Positions 838 through 49,219 of a DNA stretch of 64,000 bases are shown here, one piece after another; position 1 is the first letter of the stretch, and each line of letters starts with the position of its first letter. The notes under the pieces were generated by a model. That model was not told where the DNA came from. It did not search any database and worked only from the letters and a program-made list of their open reading frames with translations. Source of the DNA: Sphagnum compactum (Eukaryota). The position numbers were made by a program, and so were the translations under genes. The stretch lies in the NCBI GenBank assembly GCA_965153455.1, contig OZ234493.1, forward strand, positions 4,216,001 to 4,280,000. The letters are read 5' to 3'.

Positions 838-1033
838 ACAGTTAGAATTCTTGTATAAGAAGAAGAAGAGGAAGCTAGAATTGTTGTTTAAGAAGCAGAA
901 GAAGAAGAGGAGGAAGCTAGAATTCTTGTACAAGAAGAAGAAGAAGAAGAAGAAGCTAGAATTATATAAGAAGCAGAAGAAGAAGAGGAAGCTAGAATTT
1001 TTGTGTAAGAAGCAGAAGAAGGAGAAGAAGAAG
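838..1033. repeat. Imperfect purine-rich minisatellite (AAG tracts punctuated by AAGCTAGAATT) upstream of the lipase ATG
   Basis: About 5 copies of 'aagaagaagaggaagctagaatt..tgt'. It generates the spurious poly-Lys ORF 749..1054. Confidence 0.8.
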
Positions 1034-1178
1034 CCGGCTGCTATGGAGAACTAGATTAAGCAGAAGATGCTGCAGGTGGTGCAGCTTCTTGTTGCTGTGT
1101 TGTGGTGATCATCAGCTCGGTCTTCTTCATGTCGCACGGGAGTAATATATCGGTGGTGACTACAATAACTCCTTGACC

Positions 1179-4100
1179 ATGGGAACCATGAAATCAATAA
1201 GTTCGGTATGGGTTGTGACGCAGTTCTGCATCACGTCGCTGCTGCTACTAACAATGTTAGCAAGTAGTCGCAGCAGCAGGAGTAGTACCACTGCACAGGC
1301 GGCGACAGGAGCGCCATCAGCAGGACCGGTAGCTTCTTCTTCTGTTGCAGCTCCACCGGCGCAGAACAACTCCACCGGGTTCTGTCAAGCGTTTATTGTT
1401 TCCTCGGACTACACCTGCTCCGAATACATGGTGGGTTGTTGTTGTTGTTGTTGTTGTCGTCGTCGTTGGTGTTCCAAGTGCCTTTCAGGTCTTCAGCTGC
1501 AGTTGTGAATATTAGATTGCCGGCAGCAGCAGCAGCAGGTGCGAACAACTTGAGTGACGAGTCCGCAATTCCTTTGCATGGGTGTAGGTGGAGACTGTGG
1601 ATGGCTATTTGCTTGCGATTCAACGCATTGCAGCAGTGGCGGCGCCGGCAGCAAAGGGACCCGCTTTCTTGTACCATGGCATCATGGAGGTTGTTACCTA
1701 GCTATACATCTCTAGTCCCTGCAGCTTTCGTGCTTCCTTCAATCGTTCGTGTCACTCTTCAGAGATTGCAGCTAGTGAACTGACGACTGGGACCTCAAGA
1801 TTCTTGGCTGAAAAATGTGGCCAGACGATTGAGCATGATGAGTCTCTTCTCTTTCAATATACGCATGATATAGAATCAAAAAGTGACGCGATCTGTGGTT
1901 GGTGTGTCCGGCGCGCATGCAGGGAGGAGACATTTGGGTGTTGAATCCGGGTGAGGAGTCGCTAGCCTTCTTGCTAGCAAACGCGGGATACGAAGTTTGG
2001 ATCGGTAATACTCGTTCCACCATCTACACCTTCGGCCATGTTCTCTATCAACGACAGCAGAAGGTAATGAATCTTATCTGAGAAATCTTCTTGAAGTGCC
2101 CAGCAGCTTCACTGCAAAGCGGGTCAGGGTTTAATTAGTGGGCGTCGAGCTCAGGGTTTAATGGTCTTGGAGCTCAGGCCAGTTTCATGACCTTGTAGCT
2201 CAATCTGGGTTTAGTGATCTTGGAGCGCAGGCTGCTTCAATGGTCTTGGAGCTTAGGGTTTAATGATCATGCAGGAACTTACTAGGGTTTAATGGGCTTG
2301 TTGCTAATCCTTGCAATTTGGTATCTGTGCATTCATCACCTGAAACCCAGACAGCATGCTCTGCCGAAGCTTGAGATTTCTCGTTACTTTTAGTTTTGCT
2401 CATAGTGATCCAGAATTACCCAGGAATTTGTAAGCTGAGATCAGATACAGATCTCTGGATAACCACCAACAGGTTTCAAGTCTGGTTTCTGTGCACAGTC
2501 CTTCAAATTTTTGTAGCAGATTATTGCAACTGTTCCAGATTCGCCATGGAGATGATAGCTTCTTTGATTTGAGTATCTATGTGCAGGAATTCTGGAACTG
2601 GAACTGGGATGATTTGGTTTCAAAGGACTTACCTTCAATGCTATATGCAGTATATAATCACACTCAGCAACCTCTCTTCTATGTTGGCTACTCGCAGGTG
2701 CGTGCATATTGCATAATCCAAAGACAAATGTTTGTAGCCCAGTCATCTCTCACAGACAGGTGCAAATTATGTTGCATAATCTGAAGACAAATCTTTTGTA
2801 GCCATCTTTTGGTGCAGATGTGCATTGTTGCATAATCCAAAAGAAACTTTTTGTAGCCATCTCTTGCTCTAAGATGTGCATTGTTGTGTAATCTAGAGAC
2901 AATTTTTGAAGCCATCTCTCGCTTGCAGATGTGCATTGTTGTGTAAATCCGAAAGACAATTTTTGTATCCATCTCTCTGAGGTGTGCATCTTGCACAATG
3001 GAAACATGATATCCACCACCCTCCACCAAAGAAATTAATGGTAGAATGAATTGGAAAACAAAGCAAATTTGTCCAGACTTTCTCTCTGTCTCTCTCTCTC
3101 GTGTAATGAACTTGATGTTGTAGAATTGAATATGATTGATTTTTGTATGTTGTGATGTGCATCAGGGTTCAATGACAGCATTTGCAGCGTTTTCTCAAGG
3201 GCCTTTAGTGAATCTGGTTGCAAAAGCGGCGATGCTGAGTCCAGTCAGTCATGTGAACCATATCACGTCAGCTGTTGCACTTGCAGCATCGTATTTGTAT
3301 GCTGATCAGGTGCCACTGCTGCTTCTCAATTCTGACAATAATTTGTGGCTCTCACAGATGCCCACTCTAATTTGCACCTCGCAATTTTTTTCTACTTACT
3401 GTGCTCATTATTTTTCTCTAGAGATCCAGAGCTGAACAGAATTGTTAGCTCTAGATGAGTGAGTACATCACACTTTGCACTATGAATTTTCTTGGGGGGA
3501 TTTTGCAGTAACCCAAATTTACTCTGAAGAAAATTGTGGACTTTGTTTTAACAGGCTTTGCTGGCAGCTGGTTTCTTTGAGTTCAATTTGTACGGGTATG
3601 ACTTTTATCAACCTTCTCTGTGCAAATCCAGAACATCTACAAAATCACAAGCTTTTCTTTCTGTACTATGGAATGGTGAATCCCCTGCCCATTACATTGG
3701 GTAATGTGCCAGGTGACCGAGTTAGGGTGAGCTAGGCGGTGCCCATTATACCCAACATAATGGGCAAGGGTGAAACCATTCCATGGCATTAAGGTCTGGA
3801 GGGGTGATGGCAGATTCAATGACTTCCTGAAAAAAAAAATCATCTTCAACAGACATATTTTGGTCACTATAATGAGTTGATGATGATCATCGAAAGATTA
3901 TGCCATATAATATGGTCAAGAAAATGACATAATCTGCGGCCCCCCCCCAAGACCTTAATGTTTGTAGTTTTGCACTAGTTTCTGAGAGGGGTTTTTAATT
4001 TCTTACTTGTAAAATGCAGTTGACACCTGACAACCAACTCCTTTTTCTTCTTCTTGTAGTAGAAGGAAATGACAAAACATGTGTACAAATTCTGTTGCTT

Positions 4101-9356: not shown

Positions 9357-10088
9357 GTAGCCAAAAAGTGAGATTAAAACATATTATCGACAGTGCGAAT
9401 CAAGTACTTTTGGAAATTTTCAATAGCCAAAATTCAATCAAATTTTAAGGAAAAAAACCAGATTTTTTTATACATGGTTCAACTAGATATTTTTGGAAAA
9501 AAATCTTTCATACATATTTTTAACTTGTCACCAAATTTGGCAAAATCTTCCTACAGATAATCGCCACTTTTGGCTATATCACAAAATTGACCCCAAGAAA
9601 TACATTGGAGGGTACACAAAGCAACAAATGAAAATGTTGAAAAACGAAAAAAAAAAGAAAAAAAGGGAGGGGGTGGTTTGGGGGGACCGTTGGTCAAATG
9701 TCACCGCGCGTGATTTTACAGTCTTTTATTTTTCGGTCACGACCGTCTTTTACTGCGGAGGACCCGGGGCGACCGTCGCCAAATAGTCGTACTCGTGAAA
9801 AACAGAATCACCGTCCTCCGGACGGCGCCCTCGTCGTCTCCCTTGAAGATCGCTGGAGTCTGCGCAGCATCCCCGTCTGCGAGAAACACAACTCTCGCGG
9901 AGACGCTCGACGATCTGCGGTCTCTCTTGGCCTTAGAACCTCAGATCAGAGCTTGTCTTCCATTATTGTGGTTTTTTCGTATCGGAGGTTTGTGGGTTTT
10001 TCTTCTTTTCTTTGCTAAACGCCTTTTTTGTGTGAGAGAGAGAGAGAGTGTGTGTGTGTGTGTGTGGACACGCGGGGGTGTAGCAGCG

Positions 10089-11204
10089 ATGGACCTTGCA
10101 GAGAGAAAGAGTAGCCTGTTGCCGGAGTTTCTGTACAGCCACAGGGGATCATCTCCTGCGGTTGGAGGAATGGCAAGCTACGGTGGAGGAGCAGCGGCGT
10201 CGTCGTCGTTCAGCTCGATGTACCCGAGGTCGACGACGGCGAGTGGTAGCGTCGGGAAGGCACCCGGGTTCATGATCCCAGCTGCGAGCGAGGGGAAAAT
10301 CAAGATGTTTTCTCCCGAGTATTACCGAGCTTGTGCCTTTGGTGGTACACTGTGTTGTGGCTTGACGCATATGGCGGTGACACCCATTGACGTCGTGAAG
10401 TGCAACATGCAGATCGCGCCCGAGAAGTACAGAAGCATCGCCGGAGGGTTCTCGTTGGTGGTCAAGGAACAAGGACCCACGGGGCTGTTCAGAGGATGGG
10501 CACCCACGTTGCTCGGCTACAGCGTGCAAGGAGCTTGCAAGTATGGATTCTACGAGTATTTCAAGAAGACGTACTCAGACATGGTCGGAGCTGAGAACGC
10601 GAAGACGTACAAGACCTTGATCTATCTGGCAGGTTCAGCTTCTGCCGAAGTCATTGCCGACATCGGTCTTTGCCCATTCGAGGCCGTCAAGGTGCGAGTG
10701 CAAACACAGCCAGGGTTTGCTAAAGGTCTCACAGACGGTTTCCCCAAGCTCATCGCCAACGAAGGCGTGGGTGGTCTTTACAAGGGACTGGTTCCGCTTT
10801 GGGCTCGACAGATCCCGTATACGATGATGAAGTTCGCCACCTTCGAGAGCACTGTGGAAGCGATCTACAAGTACGTCGTCCCTGTGCCCAAGAGCGAGTG
10901 CTCCAAGTCCACTCAACTGGGGGTAAGCTTCTCCGCCGGTTACATTGCTGGAGTTGCTTGTGCCATCATCTCCCATCCCGCTGATAACTTGGTGTCGTTC
11001 TTGAACAACGCCAAGGGCGCCACTGTCTCACAAGCCGTGAATCAGATGGGCATGCTTGCGCTCTTCACCCGTGGTCTTCCCCTGCGTATCATTATGATCG
11101 GTACTCTCACCGGTGCTCAATGGGGTATCTACGACGCCTTCAAGGTTTTCGTCGGCTTGCCTACCACTGGCGGTGTTGCCCCCGAAGAGCCCAAGAAGGA
11201 CTAG
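10089..11204 (+). CDS. PHT3: Mitochondrial phosphate carrier (PHT3/MPT, SLC25A3 family), intronless, 371 aa
   Basis: Continuous ORF with plant N-terminus SLLPEFLYS...FMIPA..GKIKMFSPEYY, carrier motifs PIDVVK, PFEAVKVR and PADNLVS, and signatures GWAPTLLGYS, RQIPYTMMKF and QWGIYDAFK. ATG at 10089 is preferred over the GTG at 9795. Confidence 0.96.
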   Translation: MDLAERKSSLLPEFLYSHRGSSPAVGGMASYGGGAAASSSFSSMYPRSTTASGSVGKAPGFMIPAASEGKIKMFSPEYYRACAFGGTLCCGLTHMAVTPIDVVKCNMQIAPEKYRSIAGGFSLVVKEQGPTGLFRGWAPTLLGYSVQGACKYGFYEYFKKTYSDMVGAENAKTYKTLIYLAGSASAEVIADIGLCPFEAVKVRVQTQPGFAKGLTDGFPKLIANEGVGGLYKGLVPLWARQIPYTMMKFATFESTVEAIYKYVVPVPKSECSKSTQLGVSFSAGYIAGVACAIISHPADNLVSFLNNAKGATVSQAVNQMGMLALFTRGLPLRIIMIGTLTGAQWGIYDAFKVFVGLPTTGGVAPEEPKKD

Positions 11205-19900: not shown

Positions 19901-22359
19901 TCCATTAAAGCATCCTATATGAGCTTTTGTTTTCTGTGAATAGGCCAACTTTCATTATTGAATGCCTTGCCATTCCTTTTGGTCCAAATTATCCACAAAG
20001 TAATGTTTCACAATAGAAACCACATCCATGATATTAACTAAATTTTTTTAGATTTTTTAACAACCAAAGATGCAATGTTTACATTACATTGGGGCTAAGT
20101 GCCGAATAGGTATGGACTTATAACTTGATTATTATTTATGTAATTACCTTAGGGTTAAATTAATAGTTTACTTGGCGGTTGGATTTCATAATTTAATTAT
20201 GGTTTGGTCATAACTTTAATTAATGTGCATTGACTCACACATGTTAATTCATTCGATTTTTTTTTTCACATAAGTGTGCATGTTGAATCACATAGGGAGC
20301 GATGTGATGTGTAGACTTTTTTAAAAAATTGTTTAGTTTTCTTTTGGTTAATATATAAGTGAGCGTTTGTGACTTTGGAGACAATTTCGTTTGATGAAAA
20401 TAAATTATTATACGAATGCAAAGTTTCATGCAATATAATTTTAAAGAGAATTGAAATTTTAGTCTTGAAAAGTTTTGGCATAATTTATGTGTATGTGAAA
20501 TCCATGGTAGGAAAACGGTGTGGTATACTATTTATATATAGAAAATAAAAAAATGAGAGAATATTTGTGTAAACAAGAACATAGATTTCTATAGTTATGT
20601 AATAAACATACATAATTTCGATCCCAAACCCACTTGTGATCTACATCTTTTGGTTTCATAACTAGGACCCCATTTTATGTTATTTGTGTTATGAAACTTA
20701 ATTTCGTTCTTAAAGTTTAGTAAAAAATAACAAATTATTATTTTAGTTTTAGAACATGAGATGCAATGTGATTTGATTATCTTTGAATCATGGATAGAAG
20801 TCACAACATGGGTCAAAAAGATTCAGCTTATGGCGATGAAAATTATGGGAAACAAATTAAACATAATTAAATGCATAAAACAACATCATGAAGACCATAA
20901 ACATGAGTCATTATGTTTAACCCCAAGTTTATTTTTCGATTTTACATGTAATTTTAGGCACAACTTGGATTTATGGAAATATGAAAAGTTTCGCAAAAAA
21001 ACCTACATTCAAGAAAGGGAAAAAAATGGCATGTGTTAAGCCATATGTGATAATGTAAATAAAAAGTCTACAAAGAATAGTAGGCATTCATAAATAAATT
21101 CATACTTTGTTGGACCTTGTTGAAACCTTGAAACTTTTTGTTTTTGATGTAAAAAATGTTGTAGGTTTTTGAAAAAAATAAAAATAAAAATATGTTTTAT
21201 TTTTAGGACTAGTGTTTTAAATAAAACAATAATGTCATTAGAAAAGATTTTTTATTCATTTGACACACAATTTCGAAAAGATATGCAATAAACCCCATCA
21301 CTGACATTAGGAGTTGTTGAGTCAAGTTCACATGTTGAAAGACTTATTGAAAGACCTATTGAAAAGTTTAGAACTATAGGTGAACCAAAAGTGTTAATGT
21401 CATAACTACATAGACAACAAAAAGAATATGGACCTTAATTTGACCTTGAACCTGCAAGGCAACATTAAATAGTGATCACATTAGAACGACATTTACTCAT
21501 CTTACTTAATGAGAAGGATGCAACTCCAAACTATGCCATAACCAATAATTTGCATGTCATGTAGAGTGGAGGCGTCATAAATATTCATGATGGCCATGAT
21601 TTTGTAAATTTTATCTTTCAATTTAAACATTAAAATAGAATAATTATATGGTTAGAAATGTTTGGTCTTTTTAAAGAATTGCACCGAGAGGATAGGGAAA
21701 ATTTATTACAAATGTAATGCGGGCCATTGGGAGTTTTCTTATTTATGAAAAGAGATTTGTGAAAGTTAAGTGATAGTTAGTCAGAAAGGACTAATTAGTT
21801 TGGTGTGTTTTTATTTTTTATTTTTAAAAATCAAGATCATTATTTTAATTTTTAGGGGAAGCAAGGCTGAAAACCTTAAAGTATTTTTAATATAATTTTT
21901 TTTGTATTGGTATGAAGCTTAAAACAGTTGTAGAATGCCATAATTTTTTTCCTGAATTTTTAGAACATACATCATCATATTAGTTTGAACAATAAACGCA
22001 AGCATTGAGGGGATCATGGAATGACATAATTAAGGCCTTTGTGAAAGAATTTTTATAAATAATGTCTATCAAATTTTAATACTTGAACTTAGTCAACTAA
22101 AACAGGTGTTTTAAAGTTAATGAGAAAATATAAAAAGAAAACAATGACATTCTAGAATAAACTCCAAGGATGTCTCAGGGTATAGGGCCATGAAGGAATT
22201 AAACCAATTTTTGTTAGAATCAATGTATTGGTGTTAAAACATTTCACCATTGGTTTATTGTTGGAATTACAACAATAAGTGATAAATGAACAAGCGAAGA
22301 CATTTAATGAAGCGGCAGAAGTGGTAAAAAAGAAAGAGAAGAACATGGAGGAGCCCCTA

Positions 22360-22800
22360 GATGGCTCAATTGTGCACCAATGCACCTCCAATCACAAAAT
22401 TCAGACCTTAATGGCTCCCATTTGCATCAATGTTTCCTTACACACTCAAAATGCACTCAACCAACTCAAATCAAGTGCTCTATGAATCGAATGTGCACAA
22501 ATACACCTCAATGACTCAAATCAAGATTTACAATGCTGGAATGTGCACACATGCACATCCAATGTTTCGAAATACCTCCAAAGAGCACCAATTCAGCACT
22601 TGTGCACCTCCAAACTCGAGATGGCCTCCAAAACCTCAAAGCTCTTCCAAAGCTCTTCAAAACTCCTCCAAGGCTCCAAAAGCGCCTCCAACAGTGCAAA
22701 CTCCAAAGAGCACCAATCAAGCACTTGTGCACCTCGAAACTCCAAATGGGCTCCAAAACCTCAAACCTCCTCCAAAGCTCTTCAAAATTCCTCCAAGGCT
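22360..22800. repeat. Degenerate tandem repeats (~128-bp unit x2 plus fragments) downstream of the unknown ORF
   Basis: ctccaaagagcaccaa.tca.gcacttgtgcacctc.aaactc...ctccaaaacctcaaa at ~22577 and ~22701. Confidence 0.7.
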
Positions 22801-22829
22801 GTAACTATACAATCCATGGTGAAAATAAA

Positions 22830-24533
22830 TCATTTTTTGACTCGACCAGAGTCATGAAAACATTTAAAAGTGAGCTCTAGCATGGAATTGGCCATGGAAC
22901 ATTCAACAAAACGTACATGGTCTCTCCAATCAGCCCCATATAGGCTAATATAGTGACGAGCTGCACCTACACGGTCGTCATAAATGCCCTTCTTGGACAA
23001 AAACCCATGACCATTGGGCCTCATCAACATCAAGCCTGGGATAGTACAGTCTCTAACTTTACTAAACAAAAACCACTGTGCATGCTCTATAAAATCCTGA
23101 ATTAATGGTCGATCCCTAGGTGAATCTAACTCCCAACCATCATATCCAAATTTTGATGGTCCCTTCTCCGCCATCTATCGTGTTGAAGCTTCAGCTGCAA
23201 CTTTGGACCAATCTCGTGCCTCTTGCAGTTGACGCCCCATGAATTTGCCACTCCACCCAATAGCTTGGCGAGCAAAAGTGTATGCACTCCGTACTCAAAC
23301 AGATGGTGCACGCTCATCTCTTCCATGAACCTCTGCTGCAAATGCTGAGATGTAGAAACGACACCAATATAAAAACCTATGCAAGGCACCTGATATAGTA
23401 CCACAAGGCCCACCCAACGCGCTCTCTAAGCTTCCAATCCGGAATAAATCCAACTCACTACAAAGTCGACGTTCATCAATCACCATCTCTGTATGGACAG
23501 TAACTTCAACCCTCATGCCTGAAATGCGACTACTCAATACATCTTCTGTCATTGCTCCCCAACGCTCCATCAAATCTTGTAGCTGGTTCAGCCTAGTACG
23601 CATTGTGCGCATAGTAGCTGGCATGTCATCTAACATCTACTTTTGTATCACAGAAAGAATCTCATGGCATAATACTTTGTAAACTTTGACCTTAGCTATA
23701 TGTGGGTCAATGATTGGTCTGAAGTACAAAGACCCATAGCCTTCCACATTGCACATCTCGTGCACAGTGCCCTCCCTGAACCTCCGCGCCTCGCGTTGCA
23801 CTTCACTAAACTTGTAAAGCTGCAATCCACCTGTAGGAAATTGGACCCCATAATCAAACATATTCTTCTGTGTTGGAACAGAAGAACTCATCTCTGCACG
23901 ATATCATTGTATGAAACGATCAATCATAAGCTCTGCATCTGGAATATCCCACTTCATCCCAAAGAATGAAACCCGACATACTCTGGCACCTAAAGAATGC
24001 AGAGCATCTGTCATGGCCGAAATAGGAACATTAACTTGGTTCCGTGATAGTGTTAAACTATCAAAACTACAAGTCAATGTCATACCAAAAGCCCGACGCA
24101 AAGTGTTCACCAAATCATCCTTGAATGCAGCCCTCTCATGCTCATCATTCCCAGCATACACCTTCACCACTATAGGGTCGGAAATCACATGAAACCAATC
24201 ATGAAATTCTGGAAGATCCTTCACCGACACCTTCCGATTGGCCGGACGAACCATAATCCCAAATAATGCAAGTAAATCCCTGGTAAGCATCATGAAACAA
24301 GCTGCATCGAGATCTATAAAGTCTGGATCATTAATCTCAGGATGCTCTAACAAATTAGTGCATGGTCCACTAAGAAGAGCAAACTGAACTAGTGGAACAC
24401 GTATTGCGCTGGCAAGGGGTGCACGAGGGTATAAACGCCTCAAAGTAGGAGTTGGGCGAATCGGAATAACTGGTGGATGTGTTTATATTACGGTATCATC
24501 TGCAAGACGATTTGTGTATTTAACACGAGGCAT
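22830..24533 (-). pseudogene. Intronless ~568-codon ORF of unknown family, disrupted by 5 in-frame stops; probably encoded by a mobile element
   Basis: ORF-track pieces ending at 24443, 23891, 23636 and 23174 are all in one frame with an ATG at 24533. Stops: TAA 24483-5, TGA 23904-6, TAG 23637-9, TGA 23295-7, TAG 23175-7. No frameshifts; globular-protein-like composition. Confidence 0.8.
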
Positions 24534-24839
24534 AACTTCCACTATTTAGATCTTCTAGATGCCAAATATTTGACTACACCAAATGCCAAATGAACCAAAT
24601 CCAAATATCAAGATATACCAAATACCAAGGCTACCAAAAGCAACACATTTCAATATACTAACTATCAACTACACCAAATAAAAAACATTTCCATACACTA
24701 AGTATCACTTGTACCAAATGAAAAATATCTCCCTATGCCAAATACATAAAGGGAGTGATGGAGTTTGCCACGCTTCCCTCTTCCTAAACCGACAAACCCT
24801 GGCCGCCAATTTGGTAGGTGCCGGAATGCGACTCATTGC

Positions 24840-24940
24840 GGGCGCCGGAACATCGGGTCGGACGGACGGACGGACAGTCGGTCAGGCGCCGGAACGTTGG
24901 GTCGGACGGACGGACGGACAGTCGGTCAGACGGACAGACC
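24840..24940. repeat. GC-rich ~46-bp direct duplication with (GGAC)n tracts
   Basis: ggcgccggaac....gggtcggacggacggacggacagtcggtcag occurs twice. Confidence 0.85.
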
Positions 24941-25514
24941 AGCACCTGATGCTTTGGGGAACTTGCCAGCTCCTCCCTTCCACTGCTGCTACGTATATTT
25001 TCAATCTGGCAAATTGGGGTGAGATCGAACTATTTCGTCATAATGGGGGGGGGGGGGGCGGGGATGAGATGTACTAAAACTAGTTATAAAGCGAAATAAC
25101 CTGGACCCAAATTGAGAATCGAAATGCATGGGAAAAAGTTTTTTCAAGTTAGTACTATTCATTCTTGAAGATCAAGGTGATGTCAAAAATTCCAGTGTTT
25201 TTTTAATAATTTTTTCTTTGGCATTGTGCTTTGTTGTTGATTTTGGAATCCACAAAATTTGCTTTTGGTGGACATTCTCTCTACGCACTACTTTTTGTAC
25301 CTCTCCCTGTAAACAGTGCCCTGATGAATTAAGTTTTTAAAAATTCCAGAATTGTCAGCAGAAGGAATTATTAGATACCATGAAAGATCTGCTCACTGCC
25401 TCGTAAGATCATTATCATTAAACTAGAAAAATTAATTTAATCAATTAATATTTTCAAATGAATTAGTTTAGCCTCCATCTATTGCAACCAAGGGTTAATA
25501 AAAGTAGAAACTTA

Positions 25515-25600: not shown

Positions 25601-28600
25601 TTTTAGAAAAAATGTGAGTGATCTTATGTGATGTAGTTGTTGTTTTAATCATTTTTTTTCAATTACATGAGTCATGAGGTTAATTATAGTTGTTTAAGAC
25701 ATTTTTAGTCCTTTTTTTAATCGTGTTGGACATTATAATTGCATGGGATAAGTCGTGAAAGACATGTTTTGGTATTATGAACACTTTTGATCAATCAATA
25801 AATGTAATTAATTGAAATTAGTGTCATGAATCATTACATTAACTATTAGTTGTTAAAAAGATTCTTAATCATTTCTTAATTGTGTTGAACATTATAGTTG
25901 TATAGGACAAATCATCAAAGACATGTTTTGACATTGTGAACATTTTTGACCAAACAATAAATATAATTTTATTGAAATTAATGTTATCAATCATGAGGTT
26001 ATTACTAGTTGTAACATTTTGTTAACACATAACATGCCACATCATTATCATTAAAAAATGAGACACCATTAATTGCTATTAGGCACAAAAATAAATGATA
26101 TTTTTGAATTCTTAATTTTAGATCATTCAAATTCAAAATAATTACATAATTACATTAAAATTGAATAAGTTGCCATATTTATTATAGTTGTAAAACCATG
26201 ATGTCACATAGCATCATGATGTCCTTTGTAATTATATAATAATTTTTGTAATGAAATAGTTGTAAACATAGTCGAAAAAAACAATAATCATTTTTAAAAC
26301 TAATCATAAAACCCAAGATGTGTTGTTGTCTACAAAAGTTTCAACCTTATACCTTCCTTTATCTCCATGAATAAATTATAACCTTTAACCATTACACCAT
26401 TATACGAATAAATGATATGATTTATTATCACATATTATTATGCACATTTTTCTCCTAACCTACCTAAATATTTATCTTAAATATATTTTTTACTTATGTT
26501 ACTTTGTTATCGTACCTTACATACCTATGTAACCTAAAATACTAATAAGTTACTTTAAACTAATTTTAAGTTAATGTAAGCTACCCAAATCTACATGTAA
26601 GTTACCATAGGTTAGGTTTTTATGTTAATTTAAAAATATTTTAATGTTAATGAAAAATATTTTATGTTATTTTTATATTAATCTATTTTAGGTTATTCCT
26701 AAGTCAATGTAAAATATTTTATATTATTTATAAGTTAATGTATGTTATTATAAATTACTAAATTTATGTGTGGGTTACCATAGGTTAGGTTTCTATAATA
26801 GTCTAAGTGTATTTTAAGTTATGTATAAATTAATGTACATTCTTTTAGGTTATTACATTATTTTCAATTATTCTAAACTATTGGAAGATATTTTAAACTA
26901 TTCAATCTTTGGTATTTTAAATTTTAAATTTTAACCTATTTTTGATTAATTCAATTTTAGTTGTTTTAAATTATTATACCCATGGGTTTTTTCTAGTTAA
27001 TTATACATAACCAAATGATGTATTAAAAATTTAAAATGTTATAATTAAGAGTTGCTTGCGATTTTCATTAATAAAATCAAACATAAACAAAATAAAACAA
27101 TATGAGCAACGACCACAACATGTGCTAATTACGAACGGTCCAAATAAATGATCAGACTAAATTTATTAAGTTATTGTTTTCTTATTACTTTTCCTTTTTC
27201 AAGTTTAAACAACATTAAATCATTGCATTAAACTTTTTAAAATAAAGTTGTTGTTTTGATTGAAATTTAGCAAGGGATTGACTCTAGTAAATGGTGATAA
27301 GGTTTTGAGCATTAATCTACCTACAAGGATGAACCCTATTCAATAGTCTCTTTAATAAGTGATTTTTAAAAATGTGAATAAGAATAATTTACGTTTATGC
27401 CACAATTTAACATTTTTATACCTAGTCACATTCTCATCAATAATAGCTAATGCATTGGTGAGTAGCATTTAAATTTTGTAGTTCATTGTATGCTTAGTTC
27501 ATTTCATTGTTTACATGTTGAAAAGTAAAAGTCGAAAACTTTGTAATCATTGTTAAAAGTGTGTACTTAAATATTGTAAACAAACGAACGCTATAAGTTT
27601 TGACGTCCAAAAAAACATAAAATGAAGAATATATGGTTGTAAAAAATAAACAAGATCAATGTTTGGTCATTGGCTTAATTCACATTTTAAGATTTAACAC
27701 ATTCATTTTCTTCATGTTTTTTCTATGTTGTGTCTTTTACTTATAGAACTCAAATAAATCATGTAGGTTTTAACTTGATGCATCCATAAAGTTTTTGTTG
27801 AAGTTCAAAATAAAAGGTTTTATCATTTACAAAAGAATATATGTGTACATTTTAATGGACTTATTAATATAATGTACATATTATTTCAATCTCATTTCAA
27901 GATTACATTTTCACTTTCAATAAATTATATATTCTATAGGTGTGTTATAATATGTTGATTGTAACACAATTGATGACTAGTCACATATGAAATTGCACAT
28001 ATAAGTCAATTGTACAATAGCTTTACAATGTAATTATTGTGCAACTTGTTCATAAAATCAAATACATTTAATCATGACCATATAATCAATGTGTACATAC
28101 ATTTGTATAAGATCCATTTTACAATTGATGTGTAAATATAATAGAATTCAAATGATATTTGATGTGATTTAAAAAAATAGAAATTATCATATTTTTAGAA
28201 GGCAATTGTAATTTAATTGCATGGTAATTTCATAAAAGTCCATGATTGCAAATTGATGAAGTTTTCGCAAACACAATTTTTCATAATGAAATACATCATG
28301 TGACAAAGCTGATATTTTAATGAACAATGGAAATCTTGAGTAGTGTCATCAATAGAAGAAAACAGAAAAAAGAAGATTTGTTCATAGATTTGAAAATAAA
28401 AAATGAATATCTTCCGATATTTTGTTAATAAACATTCATTATAATAGATTAGGGAGTTAGTTGATTTTGCATTCAAAATGCATTGATTTTTAAAAATGTT
28501 TGTTAAATATTCATCAATGAAAATGATGATTATATTATAATTTCAAAAAGAATTGAATTGAAACTTTAATAATAAACATGCATATTTAAATTTTTATTCA

Positions 28601-43732: not shown

Positions 43733-43943
43733 GTCTGGTTTTGCAACTGAGCTAGCCAGCTGTTGTGAGGGACGTGATCCGGCATTGTTGTAGAAACTTT
43801 TGCAGATTTTGGGTTTTTTTTCAGTGAAACGGAGGCTGAAGTTTTTTGAAAGAAATTCCGGTCTCTTTGTTATACTAATCTCCCCTCTCTCCTGTTGCTT
43901 CCATTTTCCTACTTCAAATACCCATCAGGAGGTGACCCACGAA

Positions 43944-45859
43944 ATGGCCGCTACAGAGACATATCCAAAGATTGTTTTTGACTGGAGGTCAGAGACAGCG
44001 GAACATGCTCCAGAATCAGCGCCCAAAGTGGCCTTGGACATCAAACAGGCTCTGTTCCAACCACTTTCTGGAGCATGTCCCTCACGCACAGCAACCAAAA
44101 TTTCCAAGATCACAGTGGTGGGAGTAGGTAATGTGGGCATGGCTTGTGCACAGACAATCTTGACCCAAAACCTGGCTGATGAGCTTGCTTTGGTGGATGT
44201 TGACCCGGAGAAGTTGCGCGGAGAGATGCTTGATCTTCAACATGCTGCTGCATTTCTTCCCAGAGCTAAAATCATTGCCAACACTGATTACAAAGTCTCT
44301 GAAGGATCTGATATCTGTATTGTCTCTGCGGGAGCGAGGCAAAGGGTTGGTGAATCCCGGCTTGCATTGGTGCAGAGGAATGTTGCCATTTTCAAGAGCA
44401 TTATTCCACAGCTTGTCAAATACAGTCCTGCTGCAATTCTGTTGATCATTTCCAACCCGGTCGATGCACTGACCTACGTTGCTTGGAAGCTTTCAGGGTT
44501 TCCCTCGAATAGGGTTTTTGGGTCTGGAACCAATCTTGATTCTTCAAGGTTTCGAGGTCTCTTGGCTGATCGCTTGGATGTGAGTGCTCATAATGTCCAT
44601 GGCTATGTGATTGGTGAGCATGGAGATAGTTCTGTCCCGGTCTGGTCCACTGTTAATATTGGTGGAGTGCCTATCATTGAATTCTTGAAGAGCATGGGCA
44701 TTCCTTACAGCCAGAGCACACTCGATGAACTCCACAAGTATGTGAACAAACAACCCCTTCATCCTTTTGCAAATCATTTGCCTCCTTTGTTCCCATCTTT
44801 GTGCCATAGATTCTTCTGCTTCCTGTGATACTGAACCCTAAAGCTGTGAACATAGATAGAGATATAGTCTCACTCACATTCTTCTCTGTCTTGCTTTTCA
44901 TTGTAATCTGTTCACAGCTCCAACTGGGCTTTGAACCTTAGATCCTGTCTTATCTTGGTGTTCCTGTGACCTACTCAAAATGTTATCAACGTTTGGTTGT
45001 AGGTTTTTAACAATTGTTTTTCCTGCCTGTAGCAAGCAACTTATGACTTTCTTTCTCCTGTCGTATGATAAAAGAGGAACAATTGCACACACACATTGGT
45101 TTTGATCTTTATTGTGTTGTGAGTGTTCTTGTCTCTAGGTTCTTGCAGACCTTTTTCTTTTCAGCAGTCCTACAGGCTGAGATTTACTCATCAGCTTGGG
45201 GATCAGGCTTTTGGGTTTTGTCTCAACAGAAAAACCCTAACACAAAAGAGTACATCGCTGTTTTTGTTAAAAATTTTAGATGGATGTTGTGCCCCAACCC
45301 CCCCAATGTTTAGGAGAACCTAGAAGTGCTAGTGTTCCCACTTTTGTGTAATCTGCTTCCAGTGAAATTCTCAACATGCAAATGTGCTGTATTTGAATGG
45401 AGGTTCTCAATGTGTGTAATCTGCTTCCAGTGAAATCCTCAACATGCAAATGTGCTGTATTTGAATGGAGGTTCTCAATGTGTTCATTCTCAACATGGCT
45501 GCAGGATGGTGATAGGTGGGGCATATGAGGTGATAAAACTGAAGGGTTACACATCATGGGCCATTGGGTACTCAGTAGCAAGCCTCGTGAATAGCTTGCT
45601 AAGGGACCAGCGATGCATCCATCCTGTATCAGTATGTGCCAAGGGGTTCCATGGTATCGAGGAGGAGGTCTACTTGAGCTTGCCAGCACAGCTTGGATAC
45701 ACTGGTGTCATGGGTGTGCTCAATCTCCCTCTCACCGATGAAGAACGTGAAAAGCTCCAGCAATCTGCTAAAACACTTGCTGAAGTTCAGGCTGAGCTAG
45801 ATATCCAAGTTCCTAATGAAGGAGTGATTAAGTATGCTTCTGCCTGTGCTGGGATGTAG
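43944..45859 (+). CDS. LDH: L-lactate dehydrogenase, 2 exons (43944-44737, 45505-45859)
   Basis: VVGVGNVG Rossmann motif, [18 protein letters not shown] (Gln specificity residue of LDH), [39 protein letters not shown]. Phase-2 GT-AG intron. Confidence 0.97.
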
Positions 45860-46565: not shown

Positions 46566-49219
46566 CTATCCTGCTGTCTGCTTCTTCTCCCTTGCGTCCT
46601 CAATTGCCTGCTTGATTCGTTCAGCATGACCCAGTTTGATTTGCAGCCGGTGCTTGGTCTGCAGTTGATCAATCAAAGCTGCAATATCTTTTGTGTTGAT
46701 AAGTGTGTTTTCATCCATATCTTCCTGCAGCATGGCTTCAATTATGACGCCTGGGATGTTGTACCTTGCAAAGAGAGCCATCAATGAAGGGGCATTCACA
46801 TTTCGTCGTTCAAAGTCCTTCAGAGCTCTTTTCCTCTTCCCCCTTGCAAGAATTGGAGAAAGCTTGGGGAGGGTTTGTGAGGTCTGGTCACCCTCTCCAC
46901 CACCAGCAGATGCCTCCAGGTAGTACATCCTCTCACCTTCTTGCATGGATGAATGGACAGCTCCTGGTTGCCCAACAATCTCTAACGCTAATCCAGGCGA
47001 GTCCATTCCTCCTCTTCCTCCGAGGCCCACTACTCCCCCCCGCATGAGCCTTGGATTTGAACCTATGAGCTCCTCCATCATGTCAAAGAATGGCCACTTT
47101 GAGAAGGTGCATCCAGAAACCCGTTGCTTCTCCCTCTCCACTTTATAGCGTTTCTTCAAATTGTCAACCTTCATCCAAGAGCCAGCAAATTGTTTCACAG
47201 AGGTGCACAAGACCTGTGTAGTATAAACCCTCACCCTAGCCGTATGTACAAATGTCTTATTCTGTAAGTAAGCTGAGATGGATAGGCACTCAGCAGCAAT
47301 ACTAATATTGCACCATCATTTAAAGTATGCATGTGTGCCCAGATAAGACAACAGACTGTCTGCAAAGTCAGGGAAGCAGATTAGCTGACCTTGATCCGGC
47401 ATTGCTCCCGGGTTTTCGGAGGTCCCTCCACAAGACTGCCACCATCCAAACCCTGGCCACAGGAGGAAGATTCACAAAACACTTTCAAACAAAAGTGCTT
47501 CACTACGCAAGAGCATCATCATCAGGCAAGCTATATCTATAAAAATCATGGTCAACAAGAGCTCGATGATGATGATGAGTGAACTGTGTGACCTGCTGCT
47601 CTGAGAAGACAGGCTTCAGTATGATGACCCAAGTACTGAAATCCAGTGACAACCAAACATTGCTAACACACAAAAATATTAAGTCCTTCCAGCATCAACT
47701 CTGCCTCAAGCATCCCTTGCTATGTGTCTTGCAAATTGTTCCATGACTCTGCTGACTTGGATGGATTTTATGTTGATTGCCAGCAATCCATCAGTAAAAG
47801 AGACACAAGGAAAGAAGAATCATCACAGATGAAGACTTAAAAAACCCAAGAAGCCCATGAATCCATTATATAGATACATGCATGTTCATTCATCTTGTCC
47901 AATTCGTTTATGATGATAACACAATTGGCTCTTTCAATCTTTCATGTGAGGAAGGGCATCATCTGCCATTCTTGCTTCGCTCTCAGCAAACAACCCACGC
48001 ACCCAGGTGTCTTCTCTATCTCTTGTTTGTTGCACACATGGAAACTGTCCACAACCACCGCAATGGATAATTCTTTCAAACTATTCATGACTGACTGACT
48101 CTTTGCCAAGACTGGCAGGTACCCAAATCCTCGGGTAGCGGCGCACTTCCAAAACCCTCAAAGCTCATGTGCTCAAATGCATGCACATGAACTTTGTTCT
48201 CCCTTATGAATTCTGTTTTCTCCCCAGTAAGCAGCAAGCAGCAGCAGAAGAAGAAGAAGATGATGAAGAAGAAGACCTTCTTGGCACAAGTGCAAAGGGT
48301 TTGACACTTTCTACTGCTATTGTCTTTGAAGAAAACCTCTTGTATTCATCCACAAACCAAAAGAAAAAAAAAAAAAAGCAGCCTGGAACTTCTTCTTCCA
48401 TACCGTGGAGGTGATTTCGTGAGCGTTTACACGCGCCGCGATGTCGGCCCAAATCTTGCTTGTAAAATTGCCGCGATCCAGAGCTCGGTACTTGTCGCCG
48501 AAAGCTTGCAACAGCACCGTAGTGGCCCCTTGGCTCCATTCGATCGCCGGCTCCCTGGATGTCCTCCCTCGTCCAGATTTCCCACCACCACCACCACCGC
48601 TACTAGTGTCAGGATGATGCGGACTTTGCTGCACAATCCCAATGTCCCCGTCGAATGTGGGCGGCGGCCCCTCCCGACCAGTGATACTCTCTCCAAGGTT
48701 GTTGCCAGAATCAAGCCTAAGCATCACACTCCCAAGCTCCCCGAGCTTCGGCTCTTCATCTTCTTCTTCGTCCTCATGTTGCCTGTGCTGTTGCCCACTC
48801 CTCACGCCATACACATCGTCGCCGTTGTGGTGGTGGTGATTCTCCTCCTCCTCCTCACCATTAGTGGCAGCAATCTGCTGCCCTGGATGGTGGTGGTTCT
48901 CATACCCATGCTGCTGCAGCAACTGCAGTTTGTGGGCATTTCTACTAAGAAGCTGATGCACCCCACCATGGTCTCCTCCTCCTCCTCCTCTTCCACCTTC
49001 TTCTTCTTCTACTTCCTCCTCACCTTCATCCTCCTCCTCATCGACGATCACCTTCTGGCCATACAAGACCCGGTTGGTGCCGATGTTATCCTCCAACAAG
49101 CGCGGCACAATCTCGGGACCCATTTCCATCCTACCCACCACCACGTGCTGCTCGTCGGAGGAGCTTCCATCCAGAGTCTCGACAACGGGGTGCTGCATCA
49201 TCATCAGCATCATCCGCAT
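46566..49219 (-). CDS. Trihelix (Myb/SANT-like, SIP1/ASIL-type) transcription factor with acidic His/Gln-rich N-terminus and SAM-like C-terminus; 3 exons (49219-48404, 47425-47390, 47168-46566)
   Basis: EWSQGATTVLLQAFGDKYRALDRGNFTSKIWADIAARVN | GPPKTREQCRIK | VDNLKKRYKVERE...KWPFFDMMEELIG splices in frame. Confidence 0.9.

Follow-up and report, generated by a model that had tools for sequence, protein, structure and literature searches.

A decayed reading frame in Sphagnum compactum belongs to a telomere-associated moss gene family with a Rep_trans-like predicted fold

What kind of sequence is the broken reading frame that lies among ordinary genes in the moss Sphagnum compactum? To address this question, we analyzed a 64-kb stretch of its genome (assembly GCA_965153455.1, contig OZ234493.1, positions 4,216,001-4,280,000)—referred to here as the window, in whose positions coordinates are given—and, within it, P0001, a frame of 568 codons on the minus strand (24533..22830). 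The reading we favor, if only by a narrow measure of confidence, takes this feature to be an interstitial copy, now dead, of a moss family that is selfish, associated with telomeres, and codes for a Rep_trans-like tyrosine nickase. Several components of this reading are established: the family itself, the state of its copies, decay by C>T changes, selection on the protein, the fold match, the conservation of residues on matching strands, and the telomere adjacency of the intact copies. That the moss protein is a Rep_trans-like tyrosine transesterase is probable, judging from its predicted structure. An earlier note on this DNA, made from the sequence alone, had suggested an undescribed mobile element with a possible rolling-circle initiator of non-HUH type; the telomere link was absent from it and changes the likely biology.

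P0001 is interrupted by five internal stops and by no frameshift, and alignment of the DNA with four close relatives from metagenomes (loci L002, L003, L006, and L012) reveals no private indel in the window copy. The stops at codons 210 and 413 face CGA in all four relatives, and the stop at codon 453 faces CAG in all four, while codon 299 faces CAG or CAA. Codon 17 lies in a variable stretch where relatives have GAT or CGA; DNA with the same species label has a G at position 24485, which gives CAA (contig depth 77.8/77.8 in X1 and 3/5 reads in X21). C>T changes therefore account for all five stops. Thus, the earlier description of a single intronless frame running from an ATG at 24533 to about 22830, with each stop explicable by C>T, is borne out by the frame and the alignment—by the relatives' codons for four stops and by the same-species-label DNA for codon 17. 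Window-specific changes number 100 at 1393 comparable sites, with 27 C>T and 20 G>A making up 47 of them, a modest excess. The last ~22 codons (22830-22899) are read-through beyond the relatives' stop and are absent from those relatives. The window copy has been silenced by C>T stops and has lost its 3' end to an unrelated repeat, and it still encodes all of the candidate active-site residues. In poly-A RNA, 2 reads (one pair) of ~11.9 million fell on the stretch, bearing the letters of a paralogue—too few to speak either way on transcription.

How widespread is the family to which P0001 belongs? The frame matches no Pfam family at E ≤ 10 and, used alone or as a profile, no PDB sequence, as expected of the unrecognized protein family proposed earlier. 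Its relatives at E ≤ 1e-3 number 41, all from mosses or unnamed; the species represented by name are Sphagnum magellanicum, S. troendelagicum, Ceratodon purpureus, and Physcomitrium patens. The best relative was found at E 1.4e-295 with 83% identity; the frame is therefore not a product of chance. A Pfam domain is present in 0/41 relatives, and a Pfam search of 28 members found no Rep, HUH, helicase, or reverse transcriptase family, in line with the earlier note, which saw no reverse transcriptase or HUH motif. A profile of the 28 members recovered 580 clusters at E ≤ 1e-3 and 101 at E ≤ 1e-30 from 1.84 billion representatives, mostly fragments. The ESM Atlas gave no usable match, and no longer fused forms were found among proteins of 1324-3780 amino acids (those of 995-1323 amino acids lay outside the search).

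At the level of DNA, a metagenome scan with patterns that sit in the N-terminal half of the protein yielded 27 loci, ~21 of them distinct once near-identical contigs were merged. An intact full-length open reading frame (ORF) is found in two of the 27 (L002 and L003); L006 is open for 489 codons, and the remaining loci carry several stops or are cut short. The search for other copies thus excludes single-copy status and reveals a multi-copy family in which most copies are decayed. The recurring unit consists of a ~200-bp leader of ATTTGG repeats followed by an intronless ORF of 480-690 codons, and many full ORFs stand alone on contigs of 2-3.6 kb in metagenomes and run assemblies. The ratio of nonsynonymous to synonymous substitution rates (dN/dS) is 0.17-0.38 in 10/10 pairs of five Sphagnum-type copies, the window copy included; the protein has therefore been under selection. 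A quick tree, the only phylogeny built, separates two old clades, each with Physcomitrium and Ceratodon, and within-species copies are near-identical.

What does the protein look like? We modeled the closest intact relative with AlphaFold2 on a 28-sequence alignment (predicted local distance difference test, pLDDT, 88.7; predicted template modeling score, pTM, 0.79) and made a separate model of its 344-residue core (pLDDT 92.4, pTM 0.87). The protein comprises a variable acidic N-terminus, a core of ~340 residues, and a conserved helical C-terminal domain. The core is predicted to be a crescent-shaped, TBP-like antiparallel sheet, and the model is most similar to the catalytic domain of Rep_trans rolling-circle initiators. 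The Rep_trans initiator RepDE occupies ranks 1-2 in Foldseek searches of the PDB with both models: 4cwe_A at E 5.7e-3 (prob 0.97) and 4cwc_A at E 1.2e-2 for the full model, and 4cwe_A at E 7.0e-4 (prob 0.90) and 4cwc_A at E 1.6e-3 (prob 0.95) for the core, while the next unrelated fold matches have a prob of 0.04-0.08. RepSTK1 (E 0.10-0.42) and TBP (E 0.12-1.1, TMt up to 0.43) are also among the PDB fold matches. In the viral models of BFVD, the best matches are unnamed (best E 2.5e-4). Inoviridae replication proteins are also represented, two Inoviridae proteins standing at ranks 14 and 17 and A0A345MNV4, identified in PMC13107129 as an Inoviridae Rep_trans protein, at rank 25. A homodimer prediction of the core scored 0.00, which is uninformative either way.

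Are the residues expected of such an enzyme present? Carr 2016 (PMC4797284) describes the Rep_trans catalytic domain as a crescent whose antiparallel sheet has 10 strands in two modules of five, with helices outside, its motifs lying on strands 6, 9, 10, and 11 and a helical DNA-binding domain following. According to the same paper, the catalytic Tyr191 on strand 10 is flanked by R189 and K193; strand 6 carries R140, D142, A144, and D146, while strand 11 carries R212 and E214; and D46, D142, and E214 are the metal ligands (Carr 2016, PMC4797284). Candidate equivalents in the moss core, with strands numbered by DSSP at ≥3 residues in the core model, are listed in Table 1; in addition, the Gly-Ser of GSLYF lies on predicted strand 9, and helices come after strand 11. 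The D, G, K, Y, H, R, and E at the candidate sites are invariant in 27/27 aligned proteins, the most divergent members included. Conservation remains high across the wider family of 183 proteins, which includes fragments and pseudogene products (Tyr in 85/86, Lys in 82/86, Glu in 77/80, Arg in 71/79, and the strand-6 Asp in 74/83). Tyr285 is the candidate catalytic residue, matching Y191 of Rep_trans. It is followed by Gln and then by Val or Glu; i.e., a Lys at +2 is absent. The motif arrangement noticed earlier (GSLYF, KVKVYK, GMRVEVTV) therefore survives in part: K-x-Y and R-x-E are invariant in 27/27 on matching strands, but the tyrosine of GSLYF is not conserved, as relatives carry D or E there and retain the Gly-Ser alone.

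A few members depart from the common form. Three very divergent proteins—P0077 (415 amino acids), P0098 (333 amino acids), and P0043 (538 amino acids)—sit on long basal branches of the quick tree; they retain K-x-Y, H, and R-x-E and differ at the C-terminus, which is acidic and coiled. Through them, the family may reach beyond the named mosses. P0018 (756 amino acids) is the sole member of the 28 with any added domain, an N-terminal extension whose residues 53-166 weakly match an OTU cysteine protease (E 0.0081, 17.1 bits against a cut-off of 23.3). At a single chromosome end of Ceratodon purpureus, members of both old clades (KC19_6G225000 and KC19_6G225300/225400) are found three gene models apart, and the two clade types may travel or act together.

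How is the family placed relative to chromosome ends? Perfect runs of the plant telomere repeat, TTTAGGG/CCCTAAA, occur in 8/27 loci (7 of the ~21 distinct ones), including both intact copies, in which (CCCTAAA)n stands at the contig start (L002, 4-149; L003, 7-110). Both intact copies have their tracts at contig ends, each with >14 units in all, and in both the tract is followed by ~530 bp of palindromic TCTAGATATATCTA repeats plus 14-bp and 40-bp repeats, and then by the ATG. The palindromic TCTAGATATATCTA arrays between tract and ORF fold as hairpins in L002 (z -12.4); only some copies carry them, and the window does not. In L003, another tract, oriented like the first, lies at 3350-3404. 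The L006 contig terminates in (TTTAGGG)n ~130 bp past its stop, and the interval holds a leader plus the opening 14 nt of a second ORF copy, which the repeats cap. Two further copies break off early, after residue 140 in L021 and after residue 313 in L018, with telomere repeats directly following each, and three telomere units lie 58 bp past the stop in L004 and L005. A sense ORF followed by (TTTAGGG)n is as common as the opposite polarity. Among named genes, locus tags fall at chromosome starts or ends (KC19_8G003000, KC19_VG001200, four at KC19_6G2231-2254, and CY35_02G000700). The family is thus telomere-associated, in that copies directly adjoin telomere repeats. The window copy does not; the 64-kb window contains one two-unit telomere run only, far from the gene.

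The telomere tracts also border a second sequence. In five loci, a constant module that starts with TTACATGGGTG(T)TCCCACCAAAATTGGG stands behind (TTTAGGG)n, always at the same point and irrespective of what precedes the tract (Table 1); in L008 it forms tandem units of 138-150 bp. This TTACATGGGTG module may be a satellite of subtelomeres or an independent element joining up with telomere tracts; recombination between such tracts would explain its junctions without any transposase.

Where does the unit end? Homology between the window and the 27 metagenome loci is confined to 22900-24534 plus part of the upstream leader. On the upstream side it extends to 24628 in L004, L005, L014, and L020 and to 24726-24727 in L012 and L024; the leader motifs are aligned in 6/6 copies, and homology ends near 24727-24745. 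This ATTTGG leader may represent promoter elements or protein-binding iterons. On the 3' side, homology breaks at ~22893-22900, at the stop codon of the relatives, where the region of the 125-bp array adjoins it; same-species paralogues run on into an A-rich 3' tail (loose ends at 22900-22901), as does L004. Contig word depth in a run of same-species-label DNA reaches 886-3947 over 22288-22839, compared with 15-92 in most other non-ORF bins, and this segment, including the 125-bp repeat, is a separate high-copy host repeat family. Neither the 125-bp array nor the GC-rich duplication matched any of the 27 loci, and the latter, of 44 bp, is probably local sequence. The flanking tandem repeats reported earlier are thus present, but one of them has a period of 125 rather than 128, and although the ATTTGG/CCAAAT leader belongs to the unit, the 125-bp array and the GC-rich duplication lie outside it. 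The window has a GC island at 22-25 kb (0.39-0.45) amid AT-rich flanks (0.21-0.31). Just upstream of the island are a 159-bp tandem repeat (x2.1, 25672-26012) and a 19-base G run (25045-25063), neither of which is found in other copies.

Other flanking arrays are common to some loci, yet they occur in both orientations, as separate repeat modules. On the 3' side of the ORF, L002 and L003 carry a 29/59-bp array and a further module, which L004, L005, L008, L009, and L015 carry on the 5' side in inverted orientation. We considered these as long terminal inverted repeats and dropped the idea, because no contig has both arms and the modules recur independently; inverted repeats were likewise not found within L003 or L004. 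The observed truncations are 3', a bias that is partly one of ascertainment, given the N-terminal scan patterns. For that reason, and because several of the breaks are insertions of one other repeat (the TATGATC repeat of Table 1), we rejected 3' truncation as support for 5'-anchored rolling-circle copying.

Several results weigh against a selfish element with a Rep_trans-like nickase. The match to RepDE is marginal: the predicted order of strands and helices in the core fits the Rep_trans crescent, but TM-scores to RepDE are only 0.20-0.35 with root-mean-square deviations of 8.7-16 Å, only one PDB fold match reaches E ≤ 1e-3 in the better search, and other broad-sheet folds (DcpS, PITP/START, and PP2C) follow at low probability. 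Sequence comparison is silent. PF02486 and PF25227 are absent from the matches of the 28 members at E ≤ 0.1 (in a control, the PF02486 model detects pT181 RepC at 36.5 bits), PHROGs gave nothing below E 0.036, and a PDB profile search gave 0 matches. With hhalign, a 26-sequence moss core alignment compared with an 11-sequence Rep_trans alignment reached a probability of 0.1 (E 0.6 local, 0.12 global); both profiles are shallow (Neff 3.2-3.5), and as the RepC relatives listed were near-identical (≥86% identity in 120/120), five plasmid and phage Reps were added to the Rep_trans alignment by hand. The Rep_trans resemblance suggested earlier is therefore one of structure, with RepDE the top PDB fold match for two models, but not of sequence. 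Within the candidate site, K193 and D146 of Rep_trans have no conserved equivalent and R140 is variable, and comparable conservation is seen at many other positions in the family. Pattern scans gave 4 matches in prokaryote genomes and 12 in 2.9 million viral contigs, with 0 confirmed relatives in either. The window copy lies among host genes without an adjoining telomere repeat, and the placement of the Ceratodon and Sphagnum genes at chromosome ends is inferred from locus-tag numbering, not from coordinates. Finally, no shared termini, target-site duplications, or nick-site hairpin are common to the copies at the 27 loci. The defined ends, target-site duplications, and tandem unit copies anticipated in the earlier note did not emerge when the flanks of copies were aligned; the combination of shared termini and target-site duplications across loci that marks a transposon was not found for the moss family. 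Of the rolling-circle mobile element proposed there, what stands is a multi-copy family with a Rep_trans-like fold; what is missing is any terminus, target-site duplication, or tandem whole unit.

Could the family instead be one of host genes? The best-surviving alternative, which we nevertheless consider unlikely, is a lineage-specific subtelomeric host gene family whose TBP-like saddle only binds DNA (e.g., subtelomeric or telomeric repeats) and does no nicking. Copies would arise and die by subtelomeric duplication, breakage, and healing, and the window copy would be a plain pseudogene. The subtelomeric position and mosaic repeat flanks, the purifying selection, the lack of termini and target-site duplications, and the lack of sequence similarity to Rep_trans all agree with this alternative, as do the presence of TBP among the fold matches (best TMt 0.43) and two old clades that track moss species. 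However, an invariant Tyr together with Asp, Asp, and Glu on the Rep_trans strands is not needed for mere binding, and the E-value of RepDE is ~100-fold better than that of TBP in both PDB fold searches. Furthermore, interstitial copies without any subtelomeric module (the window, L010, L014, and L022) suggest that the ORF unit moves alone.

A viral or plasmid origin is less credible still. Under it, the copies would be endogenous viral elements, derived from a Rep_trans-type replication gene of a moss virus or plasmid that integrated repeatedly. Such a source would suit the known distribution of the Rep_trans-like fold elsewhere (plasmids, filamentous phages, and conjugative elements), the many full ORFs that stand alone on short contigs, and the mostly decayed state of the genomic copies. 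We judge it improbable, as the pattern scans confirmed no relative among viral contigs or prokaryote genomes, no capsid or other viral gene stands beside any copy in the loci read, telomere repeats directly flank the intact copies, and the two old clades, with both named moss species, suggest long residence in mosses. Least probable is the ORF of a telomere-targeting retroelement that is end-added from poly-A RNA with reverse transcriptase supplied in trans, as for HeT-A: the ORF is intronless, L003 has the polarity expected of end-added retroelements ((CCCTAAA)n, 5'-to-3' unit, (CCCTAAA)n), and L004 has AATAAA and an A-run past its stop, but Pfam found no reverse transcriptase or gag-like domain in the 28 members, the opposite polarity is equally common, copies carry an upstream repeat leader, the truncations seen are 3' (in part an effect of ascertainment), and the predicted fold is Rep-like rather than nucleic-acid chaperone-like.

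How would a selfish, telomere-associated family with a Rep_trans-like nickase operate? Intact members would act as tyrosine transesterases that depend on a metal, nick DNA, and remain attached to its 5' phosphate; candidate targets are the telomere repeat, the palindromic arrays, and the ATTTGG leader. The family would persist as a selfish element of chromosome ends and could spread by a rolling-circle or end-joining mode. A bolder proposal, to which we give limited credence, is an autonomous DNA element specialized for chromosome ends, through which the TBP-fold (Rep_trans / Rep-Arvir) superfamily of rolling-circle endonucleases would have its first eukaryotic branch in mosses. The transesterase would then nick at the leader upstream of its own gene, and the 5'-linked strand would be joined to the free 3' end of a telomeric overhang or would seed rolling-circle copying of subtelomeric DNA; spread would take place between telomeres and occasionally to internal sites such as the window. 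If true, this would constitute a new class of eukaryotic mobile element and a route of telomere addition without a reverse transcriptase or an HUH enzyme.

How does the moss family compare with known systems? Rolling-circle initiation is carried out by two unrelated enzyme superfamilies, of which the HUH type is found in all three domains of life and drives Helitrons and Replitrons. The moss family resembles these two in being eukaryotic, multi-copy, and without target-site duplications and in having a (predicted) rolling-circle-type tyrosine nuclease; theirs, in contrast, are HUH endonucleases, to which Helitrons add a helicase, whereas the moss members have neither HUH nor helicase matches in Pfam and no defined termini. 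Yeast Y' elements and fungal telomere-linked helicases are multi-copy ORFs beside telomere repeats, many of them broken, with interstitial telomere tracts between units. Their arrangement is similar to that of the moss copies, but they encode helicases rather than a Rep_trans-like fold. HeT-A/TART, SART/TRAS, and Athena share with the mosses units between same-polarity telomere tracts (as in L003) and copies truncated at chromosome ends; the moss family differs in lacking a reverse transcriptase and in facing the telomere tract in both orientations.

The best solved-structure match to the moss core is Rep_trans (PF02486), which includes RepC/RepD of pT181-family plasmids, RepSTK1, CTXphi RstA, and MOBT relaxases. 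The likeness, as predicted by the models, consists of a crescent antiparallel sheet with outer helices and a helical domain behind, and of Asp, Asp, Gly, basic-x-Tyr, and Arg-x-Glu in the same order on strands 1, 6, 9, 10, and 11. The differences are the lack of detectable sequence similarity, a core of ~340 residues compared with ~200, with long helical inserts, and a Lys in place of R189 with no equivalent of K193 or D146. Moreover, the moss genes are in a eukaryotic nuclear genome beside telomere repeats, with no plasmid or phage context seen. A precedent for so distant a link is Rep-Arvir / DUF7845 (PF25227; RepSNJ2, archaeal pleolipoviruses), a TBP-fold family that, in PMC13107129, is tied to Rep_trans by structure alone. 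There, the Foldseek match was of similar strength (E ~3e-3, prob 0.97), and the family was later tested at the bench; its catalytic Tyr is found near residue 283, and acidic residues occur early in the protein, midway, and ~20-60 residues after this Tyr (PMC13107129). The PF25227 model gives no match to the moss family, and Rep-Arvir, as described in PMC13107129, further differs in its winged helix-turn-helix domain, its downstream origin hairpin, its virus or plasmid setting, and an activity that has been shown experimentally, whereas moss activity is inferred.

According to the same source (PMC13107129, 2026), Rep_trans enzymes are apparently restricted to bacteria, with one archaeal sister family added. 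In the literature searched (subscription journals lay outside its coverage), we found no eukaryotic Rep_trans-like gene or comparable moss subtelomeric gene family, and nothing relevant on Sphagnum telomeres and transposable elements. On the structural models, the Rep_trans-type enzyme superfamily would extend to a domain of life and a genomic niche that are both new for it. Should the moss proteins prove to be active nickases, enzymes of this type reach eukaryotic nuclear genomes, and their telomeric location would bear on the building and repair of chromosome ends in an early land-plant lineage. The genetic tractability of Physcomitrium makes the idea directly testable.

Table 1. Positions of features in the window and, where a locus is given, in metagenome loci
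Feature	Position	Strand	Remarks
P0001 stop, codon 17	24483-24485	(-)	TAA
P0001 stop, codon 210	23904-23906	(-)	TGA
P0001 stop, codon 299	23637-23639	(-)	TAG
P0001 stop, codon 413	23295-23297	(-)	TGA
P0001 stop, codon 453	23175-23177	(-)	TAG
Asp74, Asp76 (DLDAAC), predicted strand 1	24306..24314	(-)	Candidates for D46 equivalent; 67/72 and 68/72 family proteins
Asp227-x-Gly229 (FDYG), predicted strand 6	23847..23855	(-)	Candidates for D142-x-A144; Asp 27/27 and 74/83
Lys283-x-Tyr285 (KVKVYK), predicted strand 10	23679..23687	(-)	Candidate for R189-x-Y191; 27/27
Arg341-x-Glu343 (GMRVEVTV), predicted strand 11	23505..23513	(-)	Candidates for R212-x-E214; 27/27
Upstream leader, repeated (C/G)ATTTGG(T) motifs (CCAAAT on + strand)	24534..24745	(-)	Sole flank common to other copies
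Period-125 tandem repeat x1.8	22576-22800		Inside high-copy repeat ~22288-22839; outside gene unit
ACCAAAT x6.7, period 7	24578-24628		Repeat detection
Period-40 repeat x2.2	24645-24732		Repeat detection
Period-44 GC-rich duplication x2.0, overlapping loose (CGGA)n	24841-24929		No counterpart in other copies
Open frame matching mitochondrial carrier	9714-11204	(+)	
Open frame matching lactate/malate dehydrogenase	43794-44828	(+)	
Open frame matching Myb/SANT-like trihelix domain	46566-47315	(-)	
TTACATGGGTG module	L006:1783-1845, L018:4858-4960, L021:1174-1300, L004:3361-3419, L008:4292-4570		
TATGATC repeat	L007:1256-, L008:7111-, L011:1260-, L013:5139-, L015:2658-, L004:3420-3480		

The neighbors of P0001 in the window are ordinary host genes—a mitochondrial carrier, a malate dehydrogenase, and a trihelix factor (Table 1). 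The window is therefore ordinary gene-bearing DNA and not subtelomere. Two decayed copies in the metagenome loci carry an insertion of ~810 bp at the point matching window position 23027 (L010:2717-3538 and L014:2688-3497); 5' of the ORF (93-407), L010 and L014 are also 68% identical to window 20277-20628, a segment that itself lies 3' of the window ORF. A further repeat, ending ...(C/G)(A/G)TATGATC and followed by GC-rich GGGGCTGGGGG...TTTGACCACCAAAAA, interrupts the ORF at ~residue 370 and at residue 273. In L004, this repeat comes after the telomere module as well; it is probably an unrelated transposon.

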